Origin: Schmidtea polychroa
Lineage: Eukaryota
Direction of reading: 5' to 3'
DNA length: 64,000 bases
NCBI GenBank assembly: GCA_044892525.1
Contig: CM097885.1
Location: 267,902,001 to 267,966,000 of the forward strand
The number at the start of each line of letters is the position of its first letter. The stretch's first letter is position 1. This document shows positions 2,761-52,164 of this stretch, in pieces. A program made the translations under genes and the position numbers. The notes below the pieces were generated by a model. It was not told the origin of the DNA. It searched no databases and worked only from the letters and a program-made list of their open reading frames with translations.

Positions 2761-4139
2761 CGTACGGCAATGTGATTATGGCTATATACATCGTACCATA
2801 TATGTCATTCAGTTGCCTTAGTCGATTATCTACATCCTCATATTCATACCCAAAGTATTCGTTGCCTCAAATAATGAAAATTCGGTTTTCAGTGTCTTTG
2901 GATTCGCAAGTGTTTCTTCAAGGTCTTCAATAAACTTATGAACTGAAACGTTATTTTTACCATAACATCTTTATATTTTTGTTTCCAGTTTTCACTTTAC
3001 AATATTAGGCGAACCTGCCTAAAATAAGTCGGTTAGACAGGTCTTTTCCACATGCACAGTGAACAATGCACAAAGTCAAGCAATGGTTAACGCAACTCGC
3101 AACGTCGAAAAATGTATCTGCTGCCCGTTGCATAGAATGTATAGAAAATCGAATAACTTAAAATTTAATTTTTACATTAATTTGAATTCTTTCAACCCGG
3201 GTTTCTTAATTTAAAAACCGTCAAACCCTAGACCTGATAAATTGTTTAATCAAAATGATCTGCAAAACCCAGGAAACTCCTAGTTCAGTACTCAGTACAC
3301 TTTATAATAGCGGCAAGTAAGCATGAATTTGTCGCTACCTTGGTACGGACAGACTAGTGATTTACTTCACTATCAAGTTCTAAAATAAACACAAGAGCCA
3401 TTCCCACTTAATAATTAGATGCTTTAGTAGCAGTTTCGAATAGGTGTGAATGAATATCTACTTTGACATAACACTCTACCTTATTTCATTTTTTTATCCT
3501 TGCTTCCCTTAAGCTTCTTAGTGGGCATTAATCACCAAAATTTGTCCCTTTTTAACTAAAACTTAATATATTGTTTAATTTACAGTGAATAAGGCATAAT
3601 TCTAAATAAAATATTTTAAAATTACTATATTCATTATTTATTATTTCTCATGAGTTAATAAAGACTCATAGACTCATAAAAAATATTCAAATTCACTGCC
3701 AGATCCAATAGTGCGAATTTTTTTCGCGGGATCCCTCAAAACTTTAAATAAAAAATCAATTAACAGTTAGAATTTACATTTTGATATATAAATATAAATA
3801 TTTATTTAAAAGCAAATCCAATTATAAAAACAAAAGTCATGATCCAGAAGGTAGACAAATTTCTACATTATCAAATCTGTGTTTCAATATTTCTAGATTT
3901 TTAAATGAATATAACTACATAAATGTTTGCCATCAAAATCTTCTAAAATGTTGATGAATAAATATAACTTGTCTGCCGAAAATATACCTACTAAAAGCAC
4001 AAGCTAAAATGTTATTTAAATGGAGATGACTGTAAAAACGACTTGTTTTAATAGGCACTGGTCTTTTTTTAACTTTTTAAGAACAAAATTTGGATCATGT
4101 AAAAAAAATACCACTGAGTAACAACCACTAACAGCATAG

Positions 4140-5885
4140 AAAATGAATCAACTCACAATGAATCCAACGCTAGCCAACCAGAAACATTGATTGGAGGAGG
4201 ACCTACTCAAACATTGCCAATAGAAAATGAGAATTTCCAAATCCATATTAACAATGAATTTACATTTAGCTGTTCTCTCATCGGATGCCAGACAAAATCA
4301 GATTCCGTAGCAGGAATACAACAACACCTAAAGAGAACTCACAAAACAAACCTGATATATGCCAAATGTGCTCAATGTCCCAATAAAATCCAACAGAATG
4401 AGATCATTGAACACGTAAAATCCCATAAAGAAATAACAAAACAATATAAAGACCAGAAGATGGAGATAACAATCCCAATAACACAAGATACCCCATCTAG
4501 CACCACATGACTATCACAGTCTGCCATTGAAACCCAGATTAGATCACTAACAAATGAGCCTAATAACAAAGATAATATAATATGCTACCTAAACCCGCAA
4601 TGCGCAAATGATCTAATATCCAATAATAAGACTGGCCTATTCAAAAGAATCAAAATCTTGTTGTATGGGCCAAACGATCTGGTTGATACGCTAGAATGGA
4701 CAGTTTACCTAGCCCAAAGGAAAAACAAAATATCCATAATAATGGATCCAGATAGAAAGTAATCAAAAAGAAAATGGACAATATCCTCAACATAACAACA
4801 ACAGAAGAGGATATTGAATTCCAATTATCCAATACATCTATTCCAATACATCTACCTACCCAAAACAAAACAACAACTACGATTGTGGAGTATTTGTAAT
4901 TCAGTACATAAACGACTTCCTGAAGAATCCAGAAAGCCCAATATTTAATGTGCCTACTCCAGATGAAATAAATAAAGAAATAAATATCATCAACGATATG
5001 AAGAAATACAACAAATGCACAACTGAAGAAAAAAATCTTGATATTGAGGAAGCAATAAACAAATTCAGACTCCATCAACTATCAATAAATGAAATTCTGA
5101 ACTGGTTCAAGAATAAATATGAACAAAATTTAAAACCCAAAAGAGCACACAGAACAGAAAACAAAAAAACTAACTCTCTGTTCATATCAGATCCAAAGAC
5201 AATACTCACTAAACTCTATAAAAGAAATAATAAAAGAAATCCATCAAGACTCCAATAAAGTCAAACCTGACACCTACATCAATGGACTCACACCTTACCA
5301 GAATATTACATCCAAAGCCACAAAAAGCCGGAATGGGATTCGTGTAAATTATATCAAATAATGATATAATGATAGCAATCATAAAAAGCAAAGATTCAGC
5401 TCCCGGGGAGGATGGAATACCAATCAGAGCACTACGCTAGATTACTAAGATTAAATGTCAGAAGAGCCCATGATTCCAATATACAATCGAATAATGGATA
5501 CAAAGAAAATTCCTGACTCCTAGAAAACGTACACCACCAAATAAATAATAAAACCATGAAAGAACAATCAATCACAAAATTCTGCTAACTGGAGGCCAAT
5601 AACACTGATGCCTACCAGTTACAGAATCTTCATAAAAATCCTAAAATAAAGAAACTTCCAATGGATCTATGAACACAGGTTGATATCAAAATGACAAAAA
5701 GCAGTCAACATTGCCAATGGATGCGATGAACATAATTATATCATCCAAGTGCAGAACGATAAGGCAAATAGAAAGAGATACAAAGGCCAAAAATGTCACC
5801 TGGTGATCCTAGATCTTTAGGATGCTTTCGGCATTATCCCACATGAGGTGATATGGCACATCCTCCAACAAAAAAATCTAAATAT
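4140..5885 (+). mobile_element. NeSL-like REL non-LTR retrotransposon, copy A (zinc fingers, Ulp1-like protease, RT N-half), degenerate and 3'-truncated
   Basis: C2H2-like fingers (CSLIGC...HLKRTH; CAQC...HVKSH), TGA-CTA at 4508, protease NNNYDCGVFVIQY, RT motifs NWRPI.LMPTSYRIF and DAFG; homologous to 17.8-21.9 kb. Confidence 0.85.
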
Positions 5886-6224
5886 GTGAGGTGCTTTCAG
5901 CTGAGAATTAAATATTTCAATAATTTATTAAAATAATTTTAAATGATAAATAATTGACTATTTAAAATAACTTTTAAAAACATTTTTAAATTGAAATTCT
6001 TAAATTTTTAAATTAGAAGAGCTTTTCAATAGTAAATCATTTTTAAATAAATATATTTTAAATATCGAAATTTTAGTAAATGGTTTTTGAAAATATTTTA
6101 TTCAACGCTGAAAATTTGTTTGGAAATTATACAATATTTCATTAAATAAATACTTGGAATTATGTCGTTATCCTGTGAAGCTGATTTAAAAAAAAATTAG
6201 AAGATGTTTTAGCAGCTTCTAATA

Positions 6225-6475
6225 TGGCGACCACGTCTATGGATTTCTTCATAAAGAATCTATATATATATATATATACATACAGGAGTTGACCAAAATA
6301 TCAAATGTTATATGGATTACGGAAAGCATTCGTCAAGAAAACAACGCTGGCTGAGGATTTACAATCAGCTATGTCCTATAGACAGATAAGTGAGGAGCCC
6401 GAAAAATCTTTTACTATCATAGACGAGTTAGTCAATAAAATATTGGGGCATGAGTTAAACAAAGAAAGTTTAATG
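6225..6475 (+). mobile_element. Gypsy internal remnant: primer-binding site plus gag fragment
   Basis: TGGCGACCACG, identical to the PBS of the Gypsy element at ~52.1 kb, followed by GLRKAFVKKTTLAEDLQSAMSYRQISEE, which resembles that element's gag. Confidence 0.55.
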
Positions 6476-6617
6476 TAATATCTGCTGGTACACTGAGCAG
6501 CCGAGAAGATGAATTATCGTGACATTAATATGATTTCCTTCCGTAAAATTCTTTACTCTGTCATCTTAATTTTTTAAATCTACATTGCTTTTTAATTAAT
6601 TTTTAAATTTTGCTTAG

Positions 6618-7284
6618 ATGGATTGGCCTTATTTCACGATTATCTCAAATCCGAATACAGCGAAGAGAATATAGAATTTTGGATCGCGTGTGAAGAATTC
6701 AAAACTATCACAAATCCAAAGAAAATGGCATCGAGAGCTCAGAAAATTATCAAAGACTTTGTGACTACGCAGGCTCCTAAAGAAGTACAATTTAAATAAT
6801 TGGAAGAATGATTCCATTATAATCCTAGGTGAACATCGATTCAAAAACACGACAAATAACGCTAGAGAGCATCCAACACCCAAATCCAAACATGTTCGAC
6901 ATGGCCCAGAAAAGGATTCAATCTCTAATGGAAATAGATTCTTATCAGCGCTTCTTACGTTCCGAAATGTATCAAGCTTTAATGCAAGACATAAAAAAAG
7001 CAAGTATCCCTGAACCAATTCCAAACTCATTACCTTCTGCAAAACCGTCTAGTAAGATACATTCTGCTCAGAGCAGTGTAGACGTTCCAGACTCAGATAG
7101 CCTACTCTCTTTAAGAGACATTCGTTCTTCGTGTTCTTTCAGAAAGAGTAACAAGTCTGAGTCAACAACGACGACGTCAATTATCAGAATAAGCTCTGTC
7201 AGATCAACAAGATCAGACACAGTGACTGAAGCAAACATTCCTCCGAGTTCGTCCGAGAATTGTCTGAAGCATAGCATTAGATAA
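6618..7284 (+). CDS. Regulator of G-protein signalling (RGS domain) gene, exons 6618-6784 and 6829-7284; 5' part unresolved
   Basis: [28 protein letters not shown]...APKE|VNIDSKTR...[26 protein letters not shown]; 44-nt GT-AG intron 6785-6828. Confidence 0.9.
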
Positions 7285-7844
7285 TGACTAGCGGGAATAC
7301 TATTCCTATTATCAGTTATTATGTACTCGAATTTTGAAGACTTGTTTTCGTTCGAAATCGGTATTGAATTATAAAAGTTAAGTTCGAGTTTAGTTTCATA
7401 ATGATGCTACAGATTAAGTAACCGATAAAGCCACCCCCCCTTATGGGCCCCATTGAGCGCGAGAATGTAAACTGCTGCCAAAACATAAAGGAACCTTTTC
7501 ACTGTCTCGTGAATTATTTCGCAAAATGTTTGAATAATTTCCATATAAAATATATTATGGTGTAATAAACGAATAATAATTTCTCATCAATGACATTACA
7601 ATTACACACCAATTGTTTTGTTTAAATGTATTCAAGTTATTAAATTAGTAACAACATATTATTCCTAATCAAAATTACATATTAATTTTGAACATCATAC
7701 TGTAAAAATTTACTGAAAAATTTTTATATTTTGTTTTAATGAAACGATCATTATCCTATTGTCAGTACCCCGGTGACTAAACTTAGTGACTAACGTTCCT
7801 CAGTAAAATCCTATAACATTATATATTGGCAAATGCGTTATAAT

Positions 7845-7876
<32 letters not shown>

Positions 7877-8626
7877 CAAATATTTTCTCTCTGATGTGAC
7901 AACTGAAAAGCAGCATTCAAATATTTATCAAATCAATAAATACCATCTGATTTCAAGGCTGTTTTATTCAATAATAACAATTTATTAAAAAAATAACTTT
8001 ATTGAATACCACAAATGATTATAGCGATTACAATGGCAATATTTACTCAATGCAACTTAAACGTATTCGAGTGCTTATTACAACTCTTCGAAAGGAATAT
8101 CACTTTTGGGAACACTTAACTTCTGTTAGTGGCTGACACTTTGCACAATCGATCCGGTTGCTTTCCTGCCTTGACTTAGGACTTTAACAATTTCTGCTTG
8201 TTAATTTGATTATCACTAACGTATTGATTTAAGAGTATTGATATTACCCTTTCCACTTCTCTGTGGCTGTTTCATTTTAATTTTTATTAACAATGGTTTT
8301 GTTTTCACTTCTCTTTTCAATTTCTCAATATTCAGTCTTCTTTAATCACCTCTCTAATTCTGCTTCTCCCAATAAATTTTCTTCTGTCTCTTACAATTGG
8401 ACTCTCTCTTTTATACATTTCAATCGAGATTATCTTCTTGTTTTCCAGCATATTCCTTTGGGCATTCCTAATTCCCGCATTATCTCTGACATCTGTCAAG
8501 ATATATCATTTTTTTCATTTCTTCCTTTTTATTTTCCCGACTGTAAATTCTCAAGATAAGGGATTTTCATTCCCAAATTGTTTTGTCTTCATTTTCATTT
8601 GCACTTATTAATTAAGATCGACCTCG

Positions 8627-14156: not shown

Positions 14157-15160
14157 TTGATAAGAACTTCTGTCATTTTCCTTGACGGATTTCATCTTAC
14201 AAACAAATCAACTATTGATGAAATCAATCAACACCTTACCAAAAACATCTCCTTAATACTCTTAATCCAGAAAAGTGGGTTATATGTCATTGCGGATATA
14301 CAGCTAACATTGCGAATACTGCATTCCACTTTGAATCACACAATAACACATTACGTGATAACCAACTGCCCCCCCCCACAATCATATATAATATCCCAAT
14401 CACTTTCAAAGACATTGCATCCGATTGACTAGACCAACACCATATTGCAATATACATGCATGCCCATGTCCTTAAACACACTTCCACATTTGTCTGCAAT
14501 CTCATTGTACTCTCCTCTATCAATCACAAATTCAAGACCTTTTCTCATCTTTCCCATTTCATTTCTATCCTTACTGGAATAAGATTTATGGCCAATGAAC
14601 TGGACAATTTTCTATATTAACAAACACAACCAACTGGCAACATCTGTTGACCCATCGTCCGACAACAGCATTGCGAAAATGGAGAAATAGCAAATAAAAT
14701 ACTCCGAGCACCTCTCAGCTTTCAGAGTATCATTTTTCTGTCTTTGCTATTTGCCACCTTGCGGAGTGCCTTAATCATAATCGACAAATTACAACCCCTG
14801 CAATTCCACGAATCAAAAAAGATCTCACCATTGTCATCACTAACTACCTTGTGAACCATAAACCTTCTAATCACATTACCAAATATAACACACGATTAAC
14901 CGACTTCAAATATGCTTAAACACAGACTCTATAAGCCTTGATACTTGTCTTCTAGAACTCGAAAGGATTCATGAAACCCTCTTTCCTAACCGATATACTA
15001 AGCGTTTTGGAATGGTGAACATCAGACCTCCATCCATTAAATATAAATTAACATTTCAACTACGCCTAGACTTTGATGTTAAAGACAAGATCGCAATCGA
15101 CCACATTCTAACACGAAATATACCTCATGTAATCCTCAACACTTATCATCTAGGCTCATA
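14157..15160 (+). mobile_element. NeSL-like retrotransposon, divergent subfamily copy D (zinc fingers, TGA-CTAG, Ulp1-like region, pre-RT)
   Basis: WVICHCGY...HFESH; NIPITFKDIASD*LDQHHIAIYM; WTIFYINK...VDP aligns with WTVYLA...MDP (copy A) and H*SIYLA...LDP (copy B); SVFAICHL aligns with CGVFV; downstream QLRLDF..KDKIAIDHIL. Confidence 0.7.
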
Positions 15161-16740: not shown

Positions 16741-17479
16741 ACAAAATTCAATCAAAAAAAATATTGTCAATGTTAAACTCGAGATTATACGTAAACGAAA
16801 TGGTAAATGGTAAAAGTCATATTGACAAAGCCAAATATAGAAAGAGAAACCAAAAGGGAATTCTCAAAGATAGATTTCGCAAACTTAAGAAGATTCTTTA
16901 TGATTACGGTCATATATAATGAATCTACCCCAGAGAACAACTCCAGATTCATCCATCTCACGGAGTCTGTGATGAGGAAGTCTTCTCCGGATCTCAAGGA
17001 CCTTAATTGTGTTGAGTTTTTACTTGTAAGTCGGTCCTTTCTCTGACTCCTCGTGTCCTTATTTTACCAAATCAATGAAAACTCAACACAGAATAACTTT
17101 ATTCGCTTTTTATCACAATTACAATTTGTCACTATTTGCACCTTTCTCTCAATTTAAATTTGGTTCGCTAAGGTAAGAAACCCAAGGGGCAATTACATTT
17201 TCTTGTACTATTCTGGCTTCTTTAAAATTCACAAATTTCCTCTTTTGACTTGTCCTGGCTGGATTTTCTGTTTAGCTTTTTCCTTTTTCTCTTCGACCAA
17301 ATGGCGGCTTGCTCATTTCTAAGCTCTCCTTTTATAATGTGTTTAAGAGGCCAGTTATCTAGCAAAATGAAATTAATTGTTTCCCCGGGCACCCTAAGTA
17401 AATTTTGAACGGTTCGACAATTATTTTAATTTATTTACCCTGCAATTATAATTCGAATTGTTATTCCCTTATCTGGTGT

Positions 17480-17733: not shown

Positions 17734-18891
17734 TTGATTTTACCAATTTTGTTCTGCTTTCTGGTACCATGTGAAAATTTATTTTGTTTTTGCTCTAACC
17801 CCAACAATTGGAATAACTTTATTGACCAATATAAAGTCCCAGAACCTTGGCTCAAAAAGCTGAAGGATAGACCAAAATACCCACAACTGAGGAAAGAAGA
17901 TGAATACCTCAACATCATAATAAATACTCTCCGGTCGTATAGATTCGATTGTCAGAGAGATCAGACAGACTCTATTTCATTCTTTCAATTCATGATGAAT
18001 ATAACCATAGTAGGACTCACGAAATGGTTCTCACTCAGAAAGAGAATTGAACCATATAGAAAGGAAATTGCCGCAGCAAGTGTCATGGAGGCAGATGGTG
18101 ATGATGTTCAAATAGTGAGTGAGAATGAGATGGAGGAAATTGATGCAGTAGAAAATCAAGAAATCCATGAAGCAGGTGTAATAGAGGCAGGCATGGTGGA
18201 AGAACCTAATGAAGAGGAAGAAAATCACGGTGATGTAACGCCCTCCTCTGATATGGTAGCCGCTGTCGTTGAGGAGCCTGCAGATGCAACAAAAGACTCG
18301 GACGCTGTGGAGCTATCAAATCCAATAGAGTCAACAGTTGTCGAGGAACCATGTACAATCGCAATCTCTATAGTAAACAGCGAAAACGTAGAAATTGACG
18401 GAAAAAATCAAGGATTAATGGAAAAACCCATTACACCTGTACTGATATCAAACAACGAATCAAGAAAACAATCAAAAAATATCAGGTCCAAGAGTCAGAA
18501 GAAAAAAAGACAAATAAACGACTCTGAATGCCAAGAAAACACAAAAGAAAACAAAAAAATACGTACCGGTGGAGGACCGTCAACGGCAAATACTCCACCA
18601 AGCATTCGTCATAAACCAAACATGAAAATAAACTGTGATCTGAGAATTCAGTGTATATGTAACAAAAAATACACCTACTCCACAGAAATTAATGCGGCCA
18701 AACACTATGAGGAGTCGCATCCACCTTTTGAAAAGCTGATGGTGGAATGCGAACAATGCAACACCACCATCACACTCAGAGAGGCAATTGAGCACATAAA
18801 AGTGGATAAGGAGAACAGAGCCAGAGAGAGGAGCGAACAGCAACCCGCCGCCAAACCAACAAAGGAGGACATCCCTACGGAGATCAGCTGA
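17734..18891 (+). CDS. Retrotransposon ORF1: N-terminal domain, acidic linker and two zinc fingers, ending at the TGA-CTA putative readthrough site
   Basis: 385-aa ORF (true start uncertain); CICNKKY...KHYEESH and CEQC...EH; N-domain homologous to 25315-25686. Confidence 0.75.
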   Translation: MILPILFCFLVPCENLFCFCSNPNNWNNFIDQYKVPEPWLKKLKDRPKYPQLRKEDEYLNIIINTLRSYRFDCQRDQTDSISFFQFMMNITIVGLTKWFSLRKRIEPYRKEIAAASVMEADGDDVQIVSENEMEEIDAVENQEIHEAGVIEAGMVEEPNEEEENHGDVTPSSDMVAAVVEEPADATKDSDAVELSNPIESTVVEEPCTIAISIVNSENVEIDGKNQGLMEKPITPVLISNNESRKQSKNIRSKSQKKKRQINDSECQENTKENKKIRTGGGPSTANTPPSIRHKPNMKINCDLRIQCICNKKYTYSTEINAAKHYEESHPPFEKLMVECEQCNTTITLREAIEHIKVDKENRARERSEQQPAAKPTKEDIPTEIS

Positions 18892-21873
18892 CTATCACAG
18901 ACAGCAATCGAATATTACATAGATTTTCTATCAGGTAATATAGCCACACCAAACACCGTGGCCTATATTAAACCAACATGTGCCACGGACCTGATAGAAA
19001 ATAATAAAGCTGGGCTATACAGAAACATCCATATGGACACAATCGTAGGCTCTGATAAGGTCGTATGGCTGATCCGTTTGAAACTCTGTCACTGATCAAT
19101 ATACCTTGCGGATAAGGAAAACAGAGAATCAATAATACTAGATCCTGACAACCAAATCTCCGAACCAGAAAAAAAACGCAATGAAGATTAACATGGATGA
19201 AATCCTGAAAATGACTATGCAGGATCAATCTCCATTCGGCGGAATAACAGTTGGCGAATACCCCAAACAAGATAACGATTATGACTGTGGGGTATTCGTA
19301 CTCCAATACAAAACGGATTTCCTATCCAGTGATAGAGGGATCAAATTTGCGACCCCAGACTCAATTGCAATCAGAGAGCAAATAAAGAATATTATCATGG
19401 AGAACATCGATAAATATGACAGCCTATTCTCAATCAAGAAAAATGAGGCAATTGAAGGCATCATAAAGAGTTTCCACCTACACCAGACCAACATCGATCA
19501 AATACTCAGATGGTTCGCTGATCTCTATAATAAAAATCTCAAACCACAGAGAAAATATAGAGAGAAAGGCTACACAATTACAAAATGCTCCTACCAGATA
19601 CAGAGAATATTCACGATGGCACCTGGTAGGGCAATCAAAGAGATAGACAAAATCCTGGAACCGGCTACTGATCTAACAACAGCAGTAATGGACACATACT
19701 TCGAAAGATCCACTCCTCCTAAAATGAGAGAAAGACCAGCACCCATTAAAAGTGCTCCAGAATGGGAAACAAACCAACCAATAACCAGGGCAGACATCGA
19801 TGAAGCAATAAGAAACAGCAAAGATGCTGCACCTGGTATGGACCAAATCCCACTTAGACAATGGAAGGAGTGGATGGAATTTGATGCACTAACACCAATC
19901 TTCAATAAACTCCTGGAGACGCATCAAATTCCCGAAGTATGGAAGAAATACTCAACCAAATTAATAATAAAGCCGGGGAAAGGTAACCAACCGGAGAACC
20001 CATCAAATTGGAGACCTATAGCAGTTATGCCAACAAGCTATAGGATCTTCATGAAAGTATTAAATCAAAGATTGTTAAAATGGGTACACAAAAATAAGTT
20101 AATCTCCGGTTGGCAGAAAGCCGTAAACAGAGGAAATGGCTGTGATGAACACAGCTATATTATACAAGTCCAAAAGGAAAAATCCAACAGAGCCAGATAC
20201 AGAAACCAGCAGTACCACCTGGTATTCCTCGATCTGGCAGATGCTTTCGGAACATCATCACCATAAATGGCCAGAACATCAGACACATAAATGAAGAGAA
20301 CCTGTACACCTACCTAGGAGTACGGGTTGAGCAGAAAAATAAGTGTGACTTGGGCGAGGTTTTCAAAGAGGTCGAGACAAAAGCTAACAACATATTCAAC
20401 TCCCTCTTAAGAGCCCACCAGAAAATCGAGGCCTATAACACATTCCAAGTTCATATTTCCACTACAAGCGGAGGAAATATCCAAATCCCACACAGACAAA
20501 TTCGATGAGACAATACGGAAAATGCTAAAAGACAAAAACGTCCTTGATCTGCCAAATAAAAGCCCTCTCATGGACACTGTAATATATTCATCAAAAGAGA
20601 GGGGAGGGCTTGGAATCACAAAAGTTAGTGACGAATACCTAATCCAAGCCCTCAACCGATTCCTAAAGCTCATGAACAGCGGTCACCTCCCCATAGTCAA
20701 AATCCTGAGGGAGGAGCTAACGGATGTCGCACAGCCTGCAAATGGTTGGACGGAAGCTATGAGCACAAAAGACAGAAAGACGCAAAGAAGTCATGGCTGG
20801 ACAAGACTAGAGAGTCAATTAAAGCCCTAAAGACAACCCACGGAATCGAAATAACATTCATACATAAAGGAGACTCCGTGGGATGTTCAATAAAATGCAG
20901 CACAGACAACAAGCCAGATTGGATCCTACCTCCAAACTTGGATCAAATATCCAAAACCCTTCATTGGATGATCAAAGATGCATACTTTAAGATATGGTTG
21001 GCTGCAAAATGCCAAGGATATATTATAAACCTTCCGACATCCGACGAAATGGAATGGAAGATGCCCCGGGTCCTAAAAGACCCTGAATGGAAATACATTA
21101 TAAAGGCCCGGGCAAACATGCTGGATGTCGGAATGAAGCAGTCCAACCAAGGAGGTAGGATCGTTCCAACCAATTGCCGGCATTGTGATTGCCAACAAGA
21201 ATCGGCATCACATGTCATAAACATGTGCAGAAAAGGCGACAGATCAAGGATGGCCAAACACAATGAAATCCAGAAGGCCTTAGAAGATCTATTAAAGTCC
21301 AAAAACATCAATTTTGAGACCGAGACAATTCCAGCAGAGGCAAAAGAGGCCCTAAAACCAGATATAGTGGTCCGCACAAAGAAGCAAATATTCGTAATAG
21401 ACATCAAGTGCCCTTTCGACAACAAAGAAACTGTAGAGCTGGCAAGGGCAAAAAACATGGACAAATACAGAAAACTAGCACAGGACATAAAGGAGCAGAC
21501 AGGAATACATACCTCAGTCGAAACCTTCATAGTCTGCTCCCTAGGCACATGGATAAAGGATAACAACACAATATTCAGAAAACTTGGCTTCAAGTACATC
21601 AAATACAGACAAACCAAAGAAAAAATGATTGACAGAGTAATAAAAGGATCAAGGAAAACATACGAACATCACAGAGGGTTTTACATATAAACATAAAGAG
21701 CCAGGACAAGGATGATTGCACCCGCATCCATAAAAAGGTGCACTTGGTGTCTATTACTAGTCATGGAAGGACCCGGAAGAGTTTGACCATCCCTGTGTGT
21801 TGCACTTAATTGTGCACTTGTTTATTTTTTGTAATGAAATATATGTTTGCCTCTTTATACGTACATAAAAAAA
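17790..21873 (+). mobile_element. NeSL-like REL non-LTR retrotransposon, copy B (most complete; internal RT deletion)
   Basis: Zinc-finger ORF1, Ulp1-like protease (QDNDYDCGVF), RT (NWRPIAVMPTSYRIF, FLDLADAFG), CCHC knuckle (CRHC...SASHVINMC), REL (RHNEIQ-like, KPDIV, IDIK, K..KY), short 3' UTR ending in an A-run. Confidence 0.92.
20746..21690 (+). CDS. Zinc knuckle plus restriction-like endonuclease region of copy B
   Basis: CRHCDCQQESASHVINMC, KHNEIQ, LKPDIVV, FVIDIKCPF, KNMDKYRKLA. Confidence 0.9.
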   Translation: MDGSYEHKRQKDAKKSWLDKTRESIKALKTTHGIEITFIHKGDSVGCSIKCSTDNKPDWILPPNLDQISKTLHWMIKDAYFKIWLAAKCQGYIINLPTSDEMEWKMPRVLKDPEWKYIIKARANMLDVGMKQSNQGGRIVPTNCRHCDCQQESASHVINMCRKGDRSRMAKHNEIQKALEDLLKSKNINFETETIPAEAKEALKPDIVVRTKKQIFVIDIKCPFDNKETVELARAKNMDKYRKLAQDIKEQTGIHTSVETFIVCSLGTWIKDNNTIFRKLGFKYIKYRQTKEKMIDRVIKGSRKTYEHHRGFYI

Positions 21874-25993: not shown

Positions 25994-26986
25994 TCACTTT
26001 GGTATTATTGCAACAGAATATTTAATGTTTACACAATTTTCAAATGCTAGATCAGCTAGACTTAAAAACTCAGACGAGCTAAATTTATTGAAGTATAGGT
26101 CGTCGAAGACAATGCCATCAGTTTTCGTGATATCGCTATTGACTCTACCAAGCATTTGCATATGTTTAACATGAATCGGAACTTTAAAATGACTCAGCGC
26201 AAAGTTGGTCTTTCCAATGCCAGTCTGACCAAGGAATATATGAGAACGCATATCGTAAATGTTAATTGGATGCTCAATAAAATCCACAAAATTGGGCAGT
26301 GTAGGCTTGCCGTACTCATTCAGCAATGACTCTACAATTACTTTCCTTTTAGTGATATAATGGAAAAGTTCTTTATCTTTAATATGTTGGACCTTAAAAT
26401 TATTTTCAAAGAATTTCTTACTCTGTTCTCCATAAACGATCGACAGACCATCTGGCTGGCGAATCTCGAGTTTGGTTGCATACTGAAAGACGTGAGCTCT
26501 CTCTGAAGTCAGATGCCCTTTAACAAATGGTATTTTAAATTGTGACCGTACAGCTGTGATTGTAAAGTTTCTTGCAGTTTCCAACATACACTGCATATGC
26601 CGATAACCATTATCCCCAATTTCCTCCTGCGTTGTAAAGAACTTTGTGAGTTTAGAATCACTCCATAGTCCACACAGAACGGCCTTATGCTGCTTGAAAT
26701 ATTGCATTGCGATATTAAAGGACCATAGGTAATATCGATTTCGAAACACATTATCGTTTGTAGAACTTCCCAAGTCAGCAGCAGAATCCCTATTAATCTG
26801 TGCCACCAATTCACGCGTTTCCATCTCTCTACATTTGTCAAGGTGCTCTCTAACTTCATCGACTGTAGAATACGCAGTGCGCTTCGGAGACTGATGCATA
26901 TCGTGCATCGATCCTGTTGACACATCGGTAAAAGACGGGGACTTGTCTCGTGAAGCATTTTCTTCCTTTTGAATACGTTTATGCAT
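25994..26986 (-). CDS. rep: Endogenous CRESS-DNA-virus-like Rep (HUH endonuclease plus SF3 helicase), truncated before motif C
   Basis: Uninterrupted 330-aa ORF: motif I WSFN, motif II QEEIGDNGYRHMQ, motif III YATK, Walker A GQTGIGKT, Walker B IVFDD, then NIKYSVAIIPK. Confidence 0.88.
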   Translation of the reverse strand: MHKRIQKEENASRDKSPSFTDVSTGSMHDMHQSPKRTAYSTVDEVREHLDKCREMETRELVAQINRDSAADLGSSTNDNVFRNRYYLWSFNIAMQYFKQHKAVLCGLWSDSKLTKFFTTQEEIGDNGYRHMQCMLETARNFTITAVRSQFKIPFVKGHLTSERAHVFQYATKLEIRQPDGLSIVYGEQSKKFFENNFKVQHIKDKELFHYITKRKVIVESLLNEYGKPTLPNFVDFIEHPINIYDMRSHIFLGQTGIGKTNFALSHFKVPIHVKHMQMLGRVNSDITKTDGIVFDDLYFNKFSSSEFLSLADLAFENCVNIKYSVAIIPK

Positions 26987-29408
26987 TTGAGAGGTAAGAC
27001 TCTATCAGCTCTCAATAAATGAAATCCTCAACTGGTTCAAAAACAGATATCAAAAATATCAGAAGCCGAGAAGGGCATGCAGAACAGAGAACAAAAAGAT
27101 TAATCTATGCTCATATCAAATACAGAGACTCTATTCATTGAACTCTGGCAGAGCAATAAACGAAATACATCATGATTAAAAACAAAGTTATTGACGTATC
27201 TTCAACGTCAATGGACCTACATTTCACAAGACCAAAACCTCCCAAAATACAAAATATGATCATAATCATTGATAAAAAACCGGAATGGGAATCCTCAAAA
27301 GCAATTACTGAAAAAGATATATTCATAGCAATAAAAAAAAGTAAAGATTCAGCACCAGGAGATGACGGAATACCAGTCAGAGCGTGGAAAGAATGGATGC
27401 CTGAGGACCCATTGACACCAATATTCAACAGAATAATGGAAACTAGGACAATACCAGACTGTTGGAAGACATATATAACAAAATTAATAATAAAACCGGG
27501 AAAAAATAATCAAGCCCAGAATCCTGCAAACTGGAGGCCAATAGCATTGATGCCAACTAGTTACAGAATCTTTATGAAGATACTAAACAGAGGAATTCTC
27601 CAAAGGATCCACGAACACAGACCAATATCAGAATGGCAAAAAGCAGTAAATATCGTCAATGGATGTGATGAACATAATTACATCATAACTGTTCAAAAGG
27701 AAAAACATAACAGAAAAAGATATAGAGGACAACAGTGCCACCTTGTGTTCTTGGATCTTGCGGATGCCTTTGGCAGTATTCCACATAAAGTTATTTGGCA
27801 TACTCTCCAACAAAAAGGCCTATATAAAAACACAATAAACCTTCTACAGGAATGCTACAAGGACTGTCACACTATATACCAAAGTGGAGACACTAGATCC
27901 AGTGAAATCAAGCAGGAGAAAGGTGTTAGACAGGGATGCCCACTATCCATGACTATCTTCAGCCTCTGTATTGAATACTTAATACAGGCGGCAATGAATA
28001 GTGGATAAGGAGTTGAGATAGCGGGAGAAAAAATAAGCATACTAGCCTACGCAGACGACCTTGTTCTGATGGCACCACAACACCATTTAATCCACGAAAT
28101 GCTTGAAAAATAGTCGAACAAGCTAAACTGGCTCACCTGATATTCAAGCCGTGAAAAATGCGGATACTACATCAATAAAAATGACAATGTTGGATGGGAA
28201 AACAACACCTATCTTAATGGCACCAAGATCAAAAAGATTAATGAAGAAAATCTGTATACTTATTTGGGGGTTACAGTTGGAAGTACAAAGAAAAACGACC
28301 TCAACGTGATCTTCAAAGAAGAAGAAGCCAAAGCAAACAGTATTTTCAAATCATCATTAAGAGCTCATCAAAAGATAGAAGCATACAACACCTTCTGTCA
28401 CTCAAAATTTATATTCATATTACAAGCTGAAAAATTCGACGACAAAATAAGAATGTTGATAAAGGATAACGAGGTGCTAAATCTACAACATAAGATCCCT
28501 CTGATGGATACAATCTTCTACTCTCCTACAGAAAAAGGAGGAATAGGCATTACCAAAATCGTAGACGAGCAAATGATCCAAACAATTGCTAGGTTCTTGA
28601 AGCTAATGAACAGCAGCCACTCGGCAATAGTAAATATAATAACCGAAGAATTGATCGATGTAGCCGAGACAAGAACGGAAATCCCATCAACTCAATATCA
28701 GATGCACTAAAGTGGTTAGATGGGACATATGAGCATAAAAGATCAAACTCAGCCAAACTATCCTGGCTTGATAGAGTGAAAAATGCAATCTCACAACTGT
28801 ACAAGGACCATGACATAAAGCTAACATTCCTAACACGAAATATTGGTACCGGGTGCAGCATAAAATGCAATTCGCAAGAAAAACCAGAGGAAGTCTTTCC
28901 ACCATTTTTGGACGAGGCCTCAAAAAAGTTACATTGGATGATCCGGGAGGCATACTTCCAAAAATGGAAACAGGCAAACTGCCAAGGTCACATTCTTAGA
29001 TTGCCACAATCTGAATAACCAGAGTGGAAAATGCCGAAAGTGCAGAAAAGTGCAGAAATTGCGAAAATCCTCATGAGTCATCAATCCATGTCCTGAATAT
29101 GTGTGTAAGAGGAACTAGAATGAGGACCAACAAACACAATGAGGTACAAAAAGCACTAGATGAGATTCTAAAGAAAAAGGAAATCAGCTATGAAGTGGAG
29201 AAGAAACCAAAAGAAGCAAAAGAAATGTTAAAGCCAGACATTGTAGTCAGATTAAAAGAACACATTATGATCATAGACATAAAATGCCCATTCGATGACC
29301 ATGCAACAATAGAAGCATCAAGGACAACAAATCAAAATAAATACAGAAAACTTGCACAAGATATACATGAAGCAACAAACATATACACAACAATCGAAAC
29401 ATTCGTGG

Positions 29409-32400
29409 TGTTGGGCTGATGATCAAAAATAAATAATAATATTCAAATTTATAATTAAGAAAAAATAGAGGGGGAGAACTAGCCTAGAGAAAGGAAAACC
29501 GGGAAAATAAGGGAGAAATAGTAAAAATAATTATCGAACAAAATAGAAAAATTAAATAATAAAAAGATAGCACAGGAAATTAGAATAAAAACATAAAAAC
29601 CTAAAATAACCATAATAATTACGGAAAATCGATAAAATACGACAAATTACCTAAAAATTGATTAAAGAAAGGAAATTAAGAATAAAAAATAAATTAATAA
29701 GAAAACCACCGAAAAACAATAGAAAAATATAGGAAAAGAGTAAAAAACAGAAAAAACGAATAAAATTAAAATACTACAACCGCGCAGAATTCTGATTGGT
29801 CGGAATTCAGTATATAAGGAAAGTTGAACAATTAGTTTACAGTTTTAAAATTTATTCGATAGACGCGAATCATCAGCCAAACCACTCATTACTCATTCTA
29901 TTATCAATCAAACGAATCAAAGAGAATGTAAGGAATTATTTTTAGATTTTAATGCACTACTATGTAAATGATTTTTGAATTTCATATTTGTTATTATACG
30001 TTTCTAAACTTTAATCTGAGTTACAGTACGGTTCCCTATTTTTTCGACGACGATTAAATATGCTTTTTAGGAAAATGAGTAGTATTGGATTTAGGAGTGA
30101 TGCATTTATTCATGAAATTTGTTTATGCGTGAAGAATTTGAATATGAAGATTTCGAAGGGATGTGAGATGATTTATGTCGGAATTGAATTCAATGTTGAT
30201 AACATGTGAATATGTAGAAATAAATTATTTCAGATCATGCGAAGCGTTGTCTATTTGATTTTTAAACAAGGAGATATTTTAATTTTATCATGGCATATTA
30301 TGATTTTGACCTTATTTATATGATATTTTGGGATTGATTAGCTGGGAGGACGTCCGGAATTTGTCGATGTTCGCATTGACGAGGTACGGAGTGTCTTGCT
30401 GGATGATTGATCCCGGTAGAAGGATGCAGGGTATTGTCATTAAAATCGCTACTTTATTCTCCAACTCGGTAGCGGAACTTTGTCCAATTAGTATTCTAAT
30501 CTGAACAAAAATTAACCTTATGAAATAGGAGATTTTAGGCGCCAAACTCGTCCGAAGTATGACTCTCTTCGACAGGTGTAGAAGCCAACTGACTGGAATT
30601 GTGACTATAAAAGCGAAATGCACAGGCGGTATGGGAAGCGATATCTGGCTTATTTGAATAAACTAAAACAATCTGACCAAGTGATTACCTGCCACGTTAT
30701 TCATTGTCATTCTCACCATAATCATTCTGAAGGCTTCGATTCACTCAGTGTAAGTAGATAAGCAGCAGTTGCGATCTAATTCACGCGCTACACCTCTGAT
30801 AAGCTATACTTATCTAAATTCCCGGCAGTATTCGACACCCAGTGGCATGAGTGCTTATCATTTCTCTTTCGAGTTATCTAAAGTTACAACTATTCTGGAT
30901 TGACGGTAAATCCACGCATGCACTTTTAATAAATACAATAATTAACTTAACGGTTTGATAATTAAACCAATTTTCTATTTCGATAACCAACCACTGACGA
31001 ATAACTTATGTTCACAAATCTAAGAACAAATCATAGTGAGTTCTTTAGGGAAGAATGGTCAGGCGAAATGTGTCAGTTACACTTCTAACGAGCATCGGTA
31101 ACTAAATAACTCGCAAGTAAATCAGCGTGTAGATAAACCTATCACATTTTTATCATTTCTATTTTAAGTAATAAATTTTATGAGGCAAGTAATCGAATTT
31201 CAGTGTTTTTCGCGATCGGAGCCCTGCCACCCTTTTGCTAAAATAGAGGCGAACCACATAAATAATTTTGCGTGTATTAAGCATATGTTTGAACCGGATG
31301 AAGTATGATGAATGGGGGAATGAGTGCAGTAGCGAATTTACGAGGAACGAAATAGAAAGAGACTCGATTTCTTCCTTCCTCCAACCGACCCGAGACCGTG
31401 CTTCTCGTGCGCCGACAAAAACGCCCTTTTAAAGAAATCCACCGAATATATAGGGTCGTTGAAACGGAAAATCGATACGCTGGAGGGAACATGGTTTACC
31501 CCTGCCAGTATGAAGGAGGCTCGCATGAAAATTCTCCGTCTTGAACATTGCCGCGACAGCTTGTTGCAAGAGAATCTGAGCCAGAGACTCACCATCAAGG
31601 CACAATCAGCTGCCCTTCATCGCATATACTCAGACGCTGAACTGAAAGCGAGAGTAGCAGAATACCCAATAACGGACAAAGGAAATCTTTTTCCCACGCA
31701 TCATGATTTAACTCTCCTAAGACTTGATCAATCTCTTTGTTGCGGTGCTCACGGTCCACCTCCGGCATCTCCAATTCTCATCGACATCGTTAAGGCCTCT
31801 ACGTCAACAACTGTACCGCCCGTCACTACTTCATCGAATCCGTCAACGTCGCAGCCAGTCGTTTTGCCTGGAAAACAGAAGAGGAAGAAACGGCTAACAC
31901 GGGCCGAGAAAACGAAGAAACGTCGAGAGGAGATGGCAGCCCTCGAGGCGACATTATTTGCAGCCACTCAGGCGAAGGAAGTACCATCGACCAAGATCGT
32001 CGCACCTGTCAAAGTCGCGCCTGTCTCCACCTCTCAGCCACCTTTCGACCCTCCTTTGGAGTGCGACATCGATGCGATGTTAGCGGAGGGAAAAATGATT
32101 TAGAAAGCAACTAACCTCAAGTGTCACATCGTCACAATCCCCTCCAGCAATGCCACACCCAACATCATGACAGACAATATTCAAATTTCCGTGATTTGAT
32201 GCGACTTCCTTACGGATTTGTGCTTGTTTAATTGTTAATTCGAGTTTTGTTTGGAAATTATATTTTTACTTTGTTTTTGCTAATTGTTGGAATGTTGAGT
32301 TTGTCACTATGGGTACAACGATATAATAGCCTAAGCAGATTAAAAGACCTCACTTGGACCAGAGGCAGATTTTTCCTTTACTGATGTAAGTCCTCCTAAG

Positions 32401-32618
32401 GCATTCCGAACCCGAACCGCGAATGCTGTAAGGAGTAGTTTTGGTAACAGAGCTCACCTGCTCACAGGTTCCGACCGCAGCACCAACATGACTCGTAGTC
32501 ATGGGTACCCAGGAGGGAATATCTTTTCAACAAATCATTTGGGCATCTGGGATGAATGAATCACAACGATAACCCCTAGTCATACCAACCGACAAATGCC
32601 CTCCCCAGGTGCCCAACA
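29409..32618. mobile_element. Unclassified 3.2-kb insertion, TGTTGGGC...GCCCAACA termini, 4-bp TSD GTGG
   Basis: GTGG at 29405-29408 and 32619-32622; removal rejoins the REL domain (TFVV|CSLGTW); contains an unassigned 214-aa ORF at 31459-32103. Confidence 0.85.
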
Positions 32619-32811
32619 GTGGTATGCTCTCTCGGAACATGGGACAAAAGAAACGGCGACATATTCAGAAAGCTCGGAATCAGATACGAGGAGTACATGC
32701 CAATAAAGAGCAAAATGATTGAAAGGGTAATAAAGGGCTCCAGAAAGACATACGAGAACCACAGAGGATTCTACCAATAACCCAAGTATATAGACAGAAA
32801 ATGGATGATAG

Positions 32812-33407: not shown

Positions 33408-33760
33408 TCAAATATACCATACCACAAATTTTAAATCCACCCATAGAAACTCGGATAATGTACGGATATCATCTGAAATTATTGTAAACCCGTTCTTTAA
33501 CATGGTAAGGCCCACAAGCAATCTCATAATTAACTTTGTCAATATAACACTCCACAATGATTCACGCAATGACACTCCATCTAAGTACCAACGCATTGTC
33601 CTGATCTCTTCTAATATCCCAATCTTTCTCGATGACATCAGTTCAGAATGACTAGGCCAGCGCCATATTGCCATCTTCATGTAAACCCATGTTCTCAAAC
33701 ACACCTCAATATTTGTAGACAACTTCAATCACAACTTTTGACTTTTAAAAACCACACCAA
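33408..33760 (+). mobile_element. NeSL-like fragment E (same subfamily as copy D) spanning the TGA-CTAG junction
   Basis: NIPIFLDDISSE*LGQRHIAIFM; nucleotide homology to 14390-14520. Confidence 0.7.
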
Positions 33761-39877: not shown

Positions 39878-42596
<2,719 letters not shown>

Positions 42597-42957: not shown

Positions 42958-45130
42958 AATAGGCAATTATAATAATATTCATATCCATTATCATAAGTTG
43001 TATTGAATCTTTCAATTTTATTGAATCTAAGTATTTAAATATGGTTTGGTATTGTTTTTTCCGAAAGTTATAAATCTCACTTGCATTGAAGTCTGTGTTC
43101 TGATGTAGCTAATGGAGTCCCCCGTGATAAATATAGTCTTATTATCATTGGCGAGACTACATTTCGGCTCAACTTAATTCATGAACATCGTCAATCTAGT
43201 GAAATAAAAATTATTTTTGAGCAAAAATAATTCGGGAAGTCTGTTATAAAATATTGTTAAAAACTTAAGAAACTATTAAGAAAGAGTAATTTGTGTAATA
43301 TTGATGATATGATCCTGAAATTATAAAAAAATATCTAGAGTTTTATTAAAGTTAGAACAAGAATAAGGTCTTATACGTTAAGTCTAACGAAAACTACAAA
43401 GGATTCCATCTGGAAGCGTTTAATAAATTAAAACACTAATCATAGAATATAAATGAAGTTTTAGGAGGAAATAAATTTATTAATTAAAATTTATGGCAAA
43501 TTTGAAATAATGATTATTTTAAAATCAAAAGTTCTATTGCGCTAGAACTGATTTCTAAACCCAAAGTTAGGATTGATACGAAATTTGTAAGTACATAACA
43601 CGCATACCAAGCATTAAGTTTACTTAAATTAAAATATATAAAAACACCAAGTAAATAAAATAAAACACGAGCAAGAAGTATCACACGAAAACTTACTCAT
43701 TTATAACCGAAAGACATAAAATAACAAAAACAAATTCGAACAAAGGTGATTAGTAAAAATTAAAAAGAAAATTAAATAAAATCTTCATAAAATTTTACGT
43801 AAAAAAATTATATCAAAATTTTGAATGAAAATCCAGAACAATCCATAACAAATGGCGAAATTCATTAATATTTTAGAAAAGAATTCACAAAAGTCAATTT
43901 ACAAATAAGAAATAGACTAAATTTAGCATGGAATGTTGTGGGAATGCCGAAATCCATCATGGAGGCAAATTAATTAAAAGGTAATTGAAAAATAAAATTT
44001 CAAAAATAAAAACAAAAATTCTTCGGAAAAATCACCATCATGTTCTAGAATTAAAATTAATCGAATTTGTTTTACTGCATCAATGCACGCATGCATACTT
44101 GTCCACCAAAAATAAAATATATAAACTAACACATTTCGTTACTTTCAATGCTTACACTTACAAATCAAATTAAAAATGTTTAAAAATATAAAATAAATAT
44201 TTCATGTATAAAATGAGAATGAAAAATTTCAAAAATTCTGAAACTTGAATTTAATTGGATAGATAAAAAATGAAATAAAAAATCATGAGCAACAATAAAA
44301 ATAGATCAACAAATTCTCCACAATATTCATTAATTGATCCAAATTGATATCAATATTTATTTGATTATTATTGATTTATCATTTCATCAATTATCCAATC
44401 AATTTATTCAGCGCAATTTACAAAAAAAATTTATTAACAGAATCAAATTATAAATTTAACATTTCAAGCAGCACAAAGCATAAATTAAAATCAGATCGAT
44501 AACACAAATAAATCAATTTTTATTCAAATGTTTGTTTAAATTTGTCATAATTTATCCATTTTGCACCTGAGCAGCAATTTATCATTTTTGGCTGTAAAAT
44601 TTTAAATCGAGTAGATAGCAAGCCGATTATAAATGACAATTGGATCATTTATGTCATGTGACAGCCTCCTACATCCAGAATCATCAGGGAAATCTGAATA
44701 TTTGATTGATTCACTCATCCAATTGATGCCATTTGCTGGATCGATCACATCAACATTTAACGCATGCTTGAATGGCAAATCCAATTGCTCATCATTAGCC
44801 ACACGCATCAAACAAAAACCAGCCACAACCGAATTATCCATAATCCTTACTGCAAAGCACATTTTATAACCGATTGGCCCGGAATAAAATGCCTTACTGT
44901 AAATCCATTGATTTCTCTCTTTTTGTGATAATTTATCGATTTGCTATTCCTAAAATTCGTAATTTATACATATATCATTTCTTAATTTTGTTTCGATCTG
45001 CCGAATTTCATTGGCGCATTCCGACATTTCAAGCTGCAACTAAATCTCAAATTCAAACATTACAATAAATCAATAAACCACCTTTGCATTCTCCTGCTGT
45101 TGCAGCCGCTGCTTACATTTCTGTCATCTT
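42958..45130 (-). repeat. Left arm of a ~2.1-kb inverted segmental duplication
   Basis: Reverse complement of ~46540-48552, e.g. GAAGTCTGTGTTCTGATGTAGCT vs AGCTACATCAGAACACAGACTTC; ~150-bp extra segment at ~43130-43280. Confidence 0.9.
44545..45130 (-). pseudogene. TRAF MATH-domain fragment (3' exons only, with deletions)
   Basis: DEQLDLPFKHALNVDVIDPANG..W.SESIKYSD; frameshifted, no 5' exons. Confidence 0.85.
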
Positions 45131-45625: not shown

Positions 45626-47117
45626 ATGTTTGCAAGCGTATGGAAATTGATGCAAGAAAATAAATTGGAATTTGATAATGAAATCAGCAGTGAATTGATA
45701 TGCAGCATTTGCAAATGTTTAATGATAAAGGCTTGCAGTGCTCCTTGTGGCTGTCGCTTTTGTTCTGCCCAGAAGCAACAAAATATTGTCAAAGTCAAAA
45801 GATTTATTACAATGAAAATGTTTCCCAAGATTCGGCAATTAACAGAAGAATATCAGAAGTTAATGTTAAATGCATAAGGCAAAATTGTGGATTCCAAACT
45901 GAGTTAGGCATGATGGAGAGCCACATGATGACATGCAATAAGCACGCAATCAGCTTCCAATTCAATGTAATTGGTTGTTAAACTATTGAAGTTGCGCATG
46001 ACGAGATGAAAGGTCATCTCTTTGACAACAATTGCATCCACAGCAATTTGTTGATTGATCTGATCTATAAGTTACGCTATGACATAGATTTATTGAAGCA
46101 TGCCTTAATTAGTCAACAAGTAGATATAATAATTGAAATATATATATATATATATACATACATTTGTGATTGCAGCAGAAAATGGACGAGATGGAAATGC
46201 AATTGATTGACCACAGGAGTATGAAGAATGAAAGCGATCAACTTAAACCCCAAATAGATAATATCAATGTCAATTTTTATTTTAAATTAATTTTATTGAT
46301 ATTTGTGATTGCAGGAGGAAATGTGCGGGATGGCAATGAAATTGATTGATAGCAGAGAGGAAATCGATGAATTGAATGATGAAATGATGGCAGTGAAGGA
46401 TGAGAATCACTCATTGAGAAGGGAGATGGAAACAAATATTGGATCAATCAATCAAGTTTGATTATGGATTTGATTTGTTATTGATGTTTAAATGCAAAGC
46501 AGCTCAGTCGACCAATTGATGAGATAAAAGAGACATGCGAGCAGCCGCTGCAACTGGAGAATGCAACGGTGATTTATTGATTTATTGTAATGTTTGAATT
46601 TGAGATTCAGTTGCCGCTTGATATGGAGAAATGCGCCAATGAAATTCGGCCGATTGAAAATGAATTAGGAAATGAAAAGTCTATCAATTACGGATTTTTT
46701 GAATGGGAAATCGATAAATTTTCACAACAAAAGAGAGGTCAAAGGATTTACAGCAATGATTTTTATTCAGAGCCAACCAGTTACAAAATGTGCTTGGCGG
46801 TGATGATTAGAAGTTTAGGGGGTATTGGGACAATTTGGATTGCTTTCCAGTTTAGGCTTGGGAAAAATGATAAACAATTGGATTGGCCATTCAAACATGC
46901 GGTAAATGTTGATGTGATCGATCCAGCAAATGGCAACATTTGGATGAGTGAATCAATCAAATATTCAGATTGCCCTGATGATGCCGTATGGAGGAGGCCG
47001 TCAAGTGACCGAAATGATCTAATTGTCATTTATAATCCGCCTGCTATCTACTCAATTTATAAATTAGCAGCCAAAAATGATAAATTGCTGCTCAGGTGCA
47101 AAATTGAAAAATTATGA
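45626..47117 (+). pseudogene. TRAF-family gene, disrupted
   Basis: Homologous to the intact copy at 60589-62144, with a frameshifting deletion inside the RING (~45765) and in-frame TAA at 45979-45981; MATH exon still open. Confidence 0.85.
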
Positions 47118-52114: not shown

Positions 52115-52164
52115 CTAAAGATTTTATTAATATTAACACAGAGTGATCACTCTTAAATAGTAAT

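Follow-up and report, generated by a model that had tools for sequence, protein, structure and literature searches.

An in-frame UGA conserved between ORF1 and the protease-reverse transcriptase ORF2 of planarian R5/LIN-type retrotransposons: a probable case of programmed stop-codon readthrough

Introduction

How does a retrotransposon make its reverse transcriptase (RT) when an in-frame stop codon stands in front of it? The question is raised by a 64,000-nucleotide stretch of Schmidtea polychroa DNA (GenBank assembly GCA_044892525.1, contig CM097885.1, forward-strand positions 267,902,001 to 267,966,000), called the window throughout, in which four retrotransposon copies of the kind that lacks long terminal repeats (non-LTR) carry TGA and then CTA in frame. 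An original prediction, made from the letters of the window, described the element as NeSL-like and proposed that the UGA is read through between a zinc-finger open reading frame (ORF1) and the frame behind it (ORF2). Here we report that ORF1 and ORF2, the latter encoding a Ulp1-like protease, an RT and a restriction-like endonuclease (RLE), share one frame and are split by a single conserved UGA. Comparison across lineages favours, at a probability of about 80%, the production of ORF2 by programmed stop-codon readthrough as an ORF1-ORF2 fusion in R5/LIN-type elements.

How the RT frame is translated is a long-standing question for non-LTR retrotransposons, above all in the R2/NeSL group, whose proteins cannot be given a Met start. 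The planarian element R5 reportedly has two ORFs, according to the work of Burke and colleagues in 2003. Kojima and Jurka placed flatworm R5/LIN in the NeSL clade and described Ulp1-like domains in nematode NeSL and Utopia-1_TSP (PMC4640811, cited here, like the other PMC sources, from its accessible part). The planarian families of this type are R5 of Girardia tigrina and LIN9_SM, LIN15_SM and LIN24-26_SM (PMC4640811, PMC5035012). They share the RT and RLE organisation of the elements studied here, and the accessible text of neither source mentions a stop codon, readthrough or an ORF junction for them; the published Ulp1 alignment, as far as accessible, includes no planarian family (PMC4640811).

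One reading frame divided by a single stop codon

The window belongs to a genome of 781 Mb (G000). A DNA search of this genome gave 382 candidates, of which the best 40 were scored and 30 loci fetched, and ORF1 ends in TGA CTA TCA CAG in all 30 fetched loci. Protein searches with divergent queries, in each of which the best 150 of 687-1689 candidates were scored, extended the set to 14 lineages in G000, designated by letters; the stretches were picked for diversity and are not a census. Intact relatives in G000 combine an ORF1 of 498-1094 amino acids (aa), one in-frame TGA and an open ORF2 of about 1080-1140 aa, and full-length copies of the A type run from ORF1 through the TGA into 1089 open codons.

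RVT_1 was found in 7/7 scanned ORF2s (E 1e-26 to 1e-32), and the translations hold the CxxC..H..C zinc knuckle and the PD..D motif of the RLE. Peptidase_C48 scores above its cut-off in lineages A, E and I and in two metagenome contigs, L131 and L132, and the protease profile matches Ulp1/SENP structures (best E 9.5e-12). The corresponding region of the G clade aligns, but without the catalytic His and Cys and without a Pfam match. ORF1 comprises a helical domain and Cys/His zinc fingers. For lineage C, AlphaFold models the helical domain with a confidence (pLDDT) of 83; the domain belongs to no Pfam family, has no Atlas match and no Foldseek match at E 0.001, and its best Z in fold comparison is 5.4. 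Because the helical model is confident and has no clear fold match, "gag-like" is for ORF1 an analogy of logic only.

On their domains and target sites, the elements probably belong, within the NeSL clade, to its planarian R5/LIN lineage; the NeSL-like assignment of the original prediction is narrowed to this branch. In trees they form one well-supported clade, separate from the named outgroups, and lineage A lies in 28S rDNA at the published LIN9_SM position, in opposite orientation to the rRNA; the 3' junction of locus L031 is the LIN9_SM 28S site. No named R5 or LIN protein was among the matches of the protein searches, and ten related proteins carry no recorded name.

The stop is conserved and is not a decayed tryptophan codon

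The 159 mapped junction sites represent 88 distinct contexts, of which 74 have TGA, none has TGG and 14 have something else: three from lineage E, two from F, one from H, two D-like copies with TCA, one truncation, one deleted codon and four mis-mapped ends. Mis-mapped, truncated or chimeric ends (L039 twice, L043, L058) and L127, which is cut at the junction, were kept in the denominators. Young copies do not carry TGG, since 33 of the 34 distinct intact ORF2s are preceded by TGA and the remaining one by CGA. The junction stop is never TAA or TAG, whereas the true ends of 13 complete ORF2s are TAA in seven, TGA in four and TAG in two (lineages D, F and H, which end early, were excluded from this count). 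The simplest explanation, that the TGA results from mutational decay of a Trp codon or from a host code in which TGA means Trp, can appeal to dead copies, in which TGG-to-TGA changes do occur, as at 19093 in the window. The counts refute it, as they do the random decay that the original prediction had named as one refuting outcome: among 90 distinct copies the junction codon is TGA in 80 and TGG in none, whereas nearby Trp columns of the same copies hold TGG in 255/271 and TGA in 5/271. All 512 Trp codons in the intact ORF2s are TGG, and TGA also serves as a true terminator of ORF2.

Purifying selection acts on both sides of the stop. The ratio of nonsynonymous to synonymous substitution rates (dN/dS) is 0.07-0.36 upstream (5/7 pairs computable) and, for the downstream part that had been proposed as a check, 0.04-0.18 (6/7 pairs computable).

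The codon was predicted to correspond to a conserved Trp of Ulp1 proteases, and the alignments agree. The junction column is the Trp of WLNDTIIEFF in yeast Ulp1 (1euv), a residue that forms part of the substrate tunnel. It is Trp in 63 of the 88 alignable Ulp1-like matches (152 examined), in P0028, a fragment of a related element with finger and protease in one frame, and in 10/11 nematode NeSL rows. Lineages E, F and H have Arg, Tyr and Leu there with their catalytic residues intact; in the G clade the stop is still present, although both catalytic residues, His and Cys, are gone. Because the residue varies in the former and the stop persists in the latter, it is the stop, and not the residue, that is conserved at the junction.

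In the G clade (L091, L095, L097, L104-L107; window sites 14426 and 33649) purifying selection acts on a Ulp1-like domain from which the catalytic His and Cys are missing; by these sequences it is a pseudo-protease kept in an active-looking clade.

The in-frame TGA spans the group

Of the 16 lineage seeds, 13 have TGA at this one codon of the protease: 11 in G000 and the contigs L131 and L132. In G000 the TGA is followed by CTA in lineages A, B, D, G1, G2, G3 and I, by CTC in C and by TGG in G4a-c. A-type and G-type sequences are 14-24% identical across the junction block, and the two clades lie about 2.7 substitutions per site apart in RT-RLE. A metagenome scan yielded two unrelated contigs that cover the protease, and both have a stop at the homologous codon: L132 reads TGA CTA G, with 253 open codons before and 1152 after, and L131 reads TGA CTT, with 55 open codons before it (to the contig end) and 1108 after. 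Lineage I was found later with L132 as query and has an ORF1 of 498 aa, TGA CTA as predicted and an ORF2 of 1137 aa. Because TGA spans all three deep branches of the tree, it is likely the ancestral state of the group.

A protein search with a junction profile gave a related picture. In 11 of the 15 best database matches the match begins no more than seven residues into the protein, at profile positions 67-112, where the junction is position 61; one of the 11 is L131, and such starts would be caused by a stop and likewise by contig ends. Gene callers place the start of such proteins within the protease, so that surveys in which site-specific retrotransposons are sought for genome engineering probably have the N-terminus wrong and lack the zinc fingers of ORF1. 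When fused ORF1-ORF2 proteins of 899-2863 aa were sought with the lineage I junction, none of the 910 candidates matched at E 0.001, which is no evidence of absence. Among viral contigs, 14 matched the pattern and none of these was a relative.

Two related RT elements that have no protease domain carry an in-frame TGA at a shared position (L133:495 and L140:598); the context is TGA TGG TC in L133, as in G4, and TGA CGA in L140. In a different group of long interspersed elements (LINEs), the APE-type, metagenome contigs show 245-506 open codons, an in-frame TAG followed by G, and an endonuclease-RT frame of 1060-1225 codons (L134:1262, L145:2437, L157:1575, L188:1828, L210:1832; also L144 and L153). 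This is a type III-like readthrough layout, with five clear cases among the 28 long RT frames listed.

A short 3' context, and a stop that moved

The original prediction treated UGA-CUA as a conserved unit. Its first half stands; CUA is less constant, with a clade that has TGA-TGG, a lineage that has TGA-CTC and three lineages without a stop at the codon. Across the 74 TGA contexts the next codon is CTA in 46, TGG in 17, CTC in 3, CTT, CTG and CCA in 2 each, and CAT and TTA in 1 each. Synonymous choice at this codon is nevertheless biased, a point that had been suggested as a check: among lineages with Leu at +1, CTA is used in 8/10 (P 1.9e-4 from each lineage's own codon use) and, in a stricter set, in 4/6 (P 0.015), while synonymous sites between lineages are saturated (identity 0.21-0.39). 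UGA-CUA/CGG is the type II readthrough context, and CAR-YYA defines type I, which requires no RNA structure (PMC13517186).

Lineage E, sister to C+D on the tree, reads CGA CTA or CGT TTA at the old site. Instead, an in-frame TGA CAA CCA CA stands 169 codons further upstream, flanked by open frames of 1034 and 1252 aa. This motif is unchanged in at least nine loci of 70-100% DNA identity and in 8/8 further loci whose flanks have 43-78% protein identity. To judge from these loci, lineage E amounts to a natural experiment, in which the stop was lost and a new TGA arose upstream in the other classic readthrough motif.

Three further explanations bear on how the UGA itself is handled in the RNA. 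ADAR disfavours a 5' G neighbour, which the A of UGA has. ADAR could edit part of the RNA, turning UGA into UGI, which is read as UGG; a single A-to-I change would then restore the Ulp1 Trp, and a stable local fold (z -3.9) exists in lineage A. Edited RNA would, however, give TGG copies once reverse-transcribed, and editing is very unlikely because an element that copies its own RNA shows none in 90 copies or 88 contexts. No hairpin is common to the lineages, and editing leaves both the CTA bias and the CAA-CCA site unexplained. Four sequencing runs considered as RNA evidence weigh neither way, three having the look of DNA and one covering 2/30 bins.

Selenocysteine would fit a stop that is always UGA and always in frame. 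The position, however, is that of a non-catalytic Trp, is Arg, Tyr or Leu in three lineages and has moved in E. Rfam found no selenocysteine insertion sequence (SECIS) element in 11 loci including their 3' untranslated regions (UTRs), and a crude SECIS pattern, used without a positive control, matched 0/16 downstream stretches; we regard this decoding as highly improbable. We give as little credence to splicing or trans-splicing that would remove the stop by way of the CAG nine bases after it. TGACTA..CAG does resemble a branch point and acceptor in A, B, C and G1-G3, but the CAG is absent there in D, I, L131 and L132, varies between CAG and CAA in G3/G4 and, as a Gln codon, behaves like a protein constraint; no copy family with the stop cleanly excised was seen.

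Proposed mechanism and the evidence against it

We propose the following model for programmed readthrough. Most ribosomes would stop at the UGA and release the ORF1 protein with its helical domain and zinc fingers, whereas a few percent of them would decode it as Trp, Arg or Cys. Help would come from the few bases 3' of the stop (CUA; in lineage E, CAA-CCA) and not from RNA structure. The product would be a fusion of about 1600-2300 aa that joins the zinc fingers to the protease, RT and RLE, and the ratio of ORF1 protein to fusion would be a trait kept by selection. We also lean, with only slightly better than even confidence, towards a broader history in which a deep RLE-type LINE branch, extending beyond G000, evolved this gag/gag-pol-like switch from the protease Trp codon and later exchanged its signals, most lineages having type II UGA-CUA, one a type I UGA-CAA-CCA at a new place and another UGA-UGG-UC, which would be an as yet unrecognised leaky context.

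Several observations weigh against readthrough, or against a single signal for it. The C at +4 is by itself weakly significant (P 0.03; 0.17 in the stricter set), lineage C has TGA-CTC, and the G4 clade, with 17 distinct contexts, uses TGA-TGG, which is no recognised leaky context. Local folding revealed no shared stimulatory stem-loop (z of -2 or lower in 2/15 sites), and there is no excess synonymous conservation beyond codon +1. Lineages F and H have no stop at the site and no proven replacement: the upstream part of F is chimeric in 4/4 copies seen and not recoverable, and the TGA-CGG upstream in H is seen in a single dead copy, amplified in tandem, and may have arisen from CGA by mutation. 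The latter was rejected as support, no independent copy being present among the best 40 DNA and 150 protein matches. TCA stands at the site in the two decayed D-like copies, one G4 copy has no TGA codon, and the loss of the catalytic His and Cys in the G clade bears on whether the protease cuts the fusion.

The chief rival, which we nonetheless consider improbable, is that ribosomes terminate at the UGA and that ORF2 is made separately, through AUG-independent reinitiation or internal initiation directly behind the stop. The stop lies at the start of a domain, the G4 context TGA-TGG is compatible with this route, and termination-reinitiation has been described for LINE-1 and SART1 (PMC5972666). 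A further point against readthrough keeps this rival alive, namely that R2-group proteins are translated noncanonically without a Met start (PMC13580325). In favour of readthrough, no conserved AUG stands at the start of ORF2 across lineages; its first Met varies between 6 and 476 and falls after the catalytic His in A and within the RT in G2. A stop-start overlap like that of SART1 was considered and rejected, as the AUGs that overlap the stop in B and G4 are in a different frame from ORF2. Reinitiation, however, needs neither TGA over TAA or TAG, nor a shared frame, nor CTA or CAA-CCA, and the relocated stop of lineage E kept all three; it would also remove the conserved Trp codon of the protease. 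Readthrough therefore remains our preferred explanation.

Comparison with known systems

The env-like frame of the LTR element SIRE1 is expressed by readthrough, and George and Eickbush reportedly described in 1999 a conserved stop before the Drosophila R2 ORF that is bypassed. Readthrough into a polymerase is already established for gammaretroviruses and alphaviruses. The alphavirus opal (UGA-CUA/CGG) and the tobamovirus CAR-YYA site use the same hexamers with a polymerase behind the stop, and in chikungunya virus an Arg codon, CGA-CUA, replaces the opal as in lineage E (PMC13517186). Those are RNA viruses, whereas ours is a host retrotransposon without a shared downstream stem-loop, and CAR-YYA follows UGA here and UAG in tobacco mosaic virus. 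In the gammaretrovirus Moloney murine leukaemia virus a leaky gag-pol stop sets the ratio of upstream protein to protease-RT fusion (PMC13517186), as we propose for R5/LIN; that virus is an LTR element with UAG and a pseudoknot, however, and ORF1 here gave no clear capsid-like fold match.

Closer relatives differ at the codon itself. Caenorhabditis NeSL-1 and Utopia-1_TSP have the same N-terminal Ulp1-like protease, with the same motif, before RT and RLE, but a sense codon at the junction position (the Trp of the NeSL rows above), and the Utopia families as a rule code for a single protein (PMC4640811). Other non-LTR elements also express their RT frame non-canonically, LINE-1 by reinitiation, SART1 by UAAUG coupling and L1Tc by 2A StopGo (PMC5972666), and R2 by non-Met initiation (PMC13580325); for none of them is there a description of decoding at a UGA that lies in frame within a protein domain and in a virus-type context.

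The junction TGA is a real, lineage-wide feature that would bring a variant of a known recoding mechanism to a known element family. Our literature search, whose coverage largely excluded subscription papers and Repbase, found no paper on readthrough in NeSL, R5/LIN or any other non-LTR element. Should the broader history proposed above hold, a group of non-LTR retrotransposons would for the first time be known to use stop-codon readthrough for its expression, and its junctions would form a natural collection of such signals. A single codon marks the junction, and a dozen natural variants with saturated synonymous sites exist, so that short reporters can test the mechanism. In planarians, the efficiency of readthrough could be a point at which the activity of the elements in stem cells is controlled.

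The copies in the window

The four sites read TGACTAT at 4508, TGACTAG at 14426, TGACTAT at 18889 and TGACTAG at 33649. The heptamer TGACTA[GT] occurs 16 times in the window on both strands; the word is ordinary, its position non-random. Each of the four TGAs has a Cys/His-finger stretch in frame upstream and is followed by LSQSAIE (4508), LDQHHIAIY (14426), LSQTAIEYY (18889) or LGQRHIAIF (33649). That the sites are homologous, as had been claimed, holds: 18889 and 4508 align across the stop with an intact A-type element (60% and 34% aa identity), and 14426 and 33649, which share 76% DNA identity and have no match to the A-type query, fall on this very codon in the distant G3 lineage (39% and 38% identity; E 1e-36 for 14279-14542). 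A junction mapper run on the window returned these four sites and no others. All four copies are decayed by frameshifts, extra stops and deletions; the one at 17.8-21.9 kb retains Peptidase_C48 and RVT_1 remnants and has a second TGA in the His-Trp motif of the protease. The features of this A-type copy, placed by tblastn and blastn to intact copies in its ORF1 part, and of the other copies are as follows.

16817-17009, + strand: further ORF1 piece of the A-type copy
17809-18888, + strand: 3' part of ORF1, with the conserved helical domain, an acidic low-complexity stretch and two Cys/His fingers
18889-18891, + strand: in-frame TGA at the ORF1/ORF2 junction, at the Trp codon that opens the Ulp1-like protease
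18892-18900, + strand: 3' context CTA TCA CAG, with the type II UGA-CUA hexamer (motif definition in PMC13517186), as in the 30 fetched loci
18892-19400, + strand: Ulp1-like (Peptidase_C48) domain, with Trp-to-TGA at 19093 and a frameshift near 19170
19592-20254, + strand: N-terminal part of the RT, about 140 RT codons being deleted at 20254
20245-21687, + strand: thumb/linker, zinc knuckle and RLE, frameshifted
21688-21852, + strand: 3' UTR, aligned with an intact A-type element; no SECIS found in relatives
4174-5884, + strand: decayed B-type copy, junction TGA CTA TCA CAG at 4508
14279-15119, + strand: decayed G3-like copy, junction TGA CTA GAC CAA at 14426
33612-33716, + strand: short G-type remnant, junction TGA CTA GGC CAG at 33649
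26973-32811, + strand: B-type copy, 5'-truncated and interrupted (26973-29410 and 32619-32811), junction not included

At 52157-54497 (+) the window holds frames similar to ORF1-side sequence in L040:8167-10000, with a helical motif repeated internally; on this similarity the segment is probably the 5' part of a G-type element.

Genomic setting and other observations

The window copies and the B and G copies are dispersed, whereas lineages C, E and F adjoin 28S and lineage I adjoins a tRNA-Lys array. Lineage I (L231:379-2995 and 3181-8088) starts directly behind seven tRNA-Lys(TTT) genes with a spacing of 424 bases and recurs in steps of about 7 kb on G000 contigs C4 and C232. The targets named for R5/LIN-type elements in the accessible parts of PMC4640811 and PMC5035012 do not include tRNA-Lys.

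Full-length A and C copies inserted in rDNA have an ATG in the antisense strand of the 28S target, some 40 bases ahead of the point of insertion; it shares the frame of ORF1, and 714 and 1094 codons run open from it as far as the junction TGA (L033:3320-3360, L040:2925, L077:166). By this arrangement the 28S target may supply the start codon of ORF1. Locus L031 holds an internal copy of the same target piece.

Large tandem arrays with units of about 20 kb, composed of R5/LIN pieces that are nested, chimeric and broken, among them A/B chimeras and lineage H, lie on G000 contigs C19, C23, C37, C82, C88, C94, C99, C143 and C173 and on C1 near 29.7 Mb and 271.5 Mb, and inflate copy counts. At L078 (G000:C772) a lineage C copy with intact ORF2 is joined directly, on its 5' side, to a long telomeric array of TTAGGG.

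TRAF-like genes or pieces (RING, zf-TRAF, MATH) lie in the window at 60592-62171 (-), 44605-44943 (-) and 46581-47114 (+), and another stands beside L037. On the minus strand, 50278-52114 contains a 402-codon frame of gag-like look, without a Pfam match, and then a protease-like frame. A Cys/His/Met-rich tandem repeat with several open frames occupies 40744-41551.

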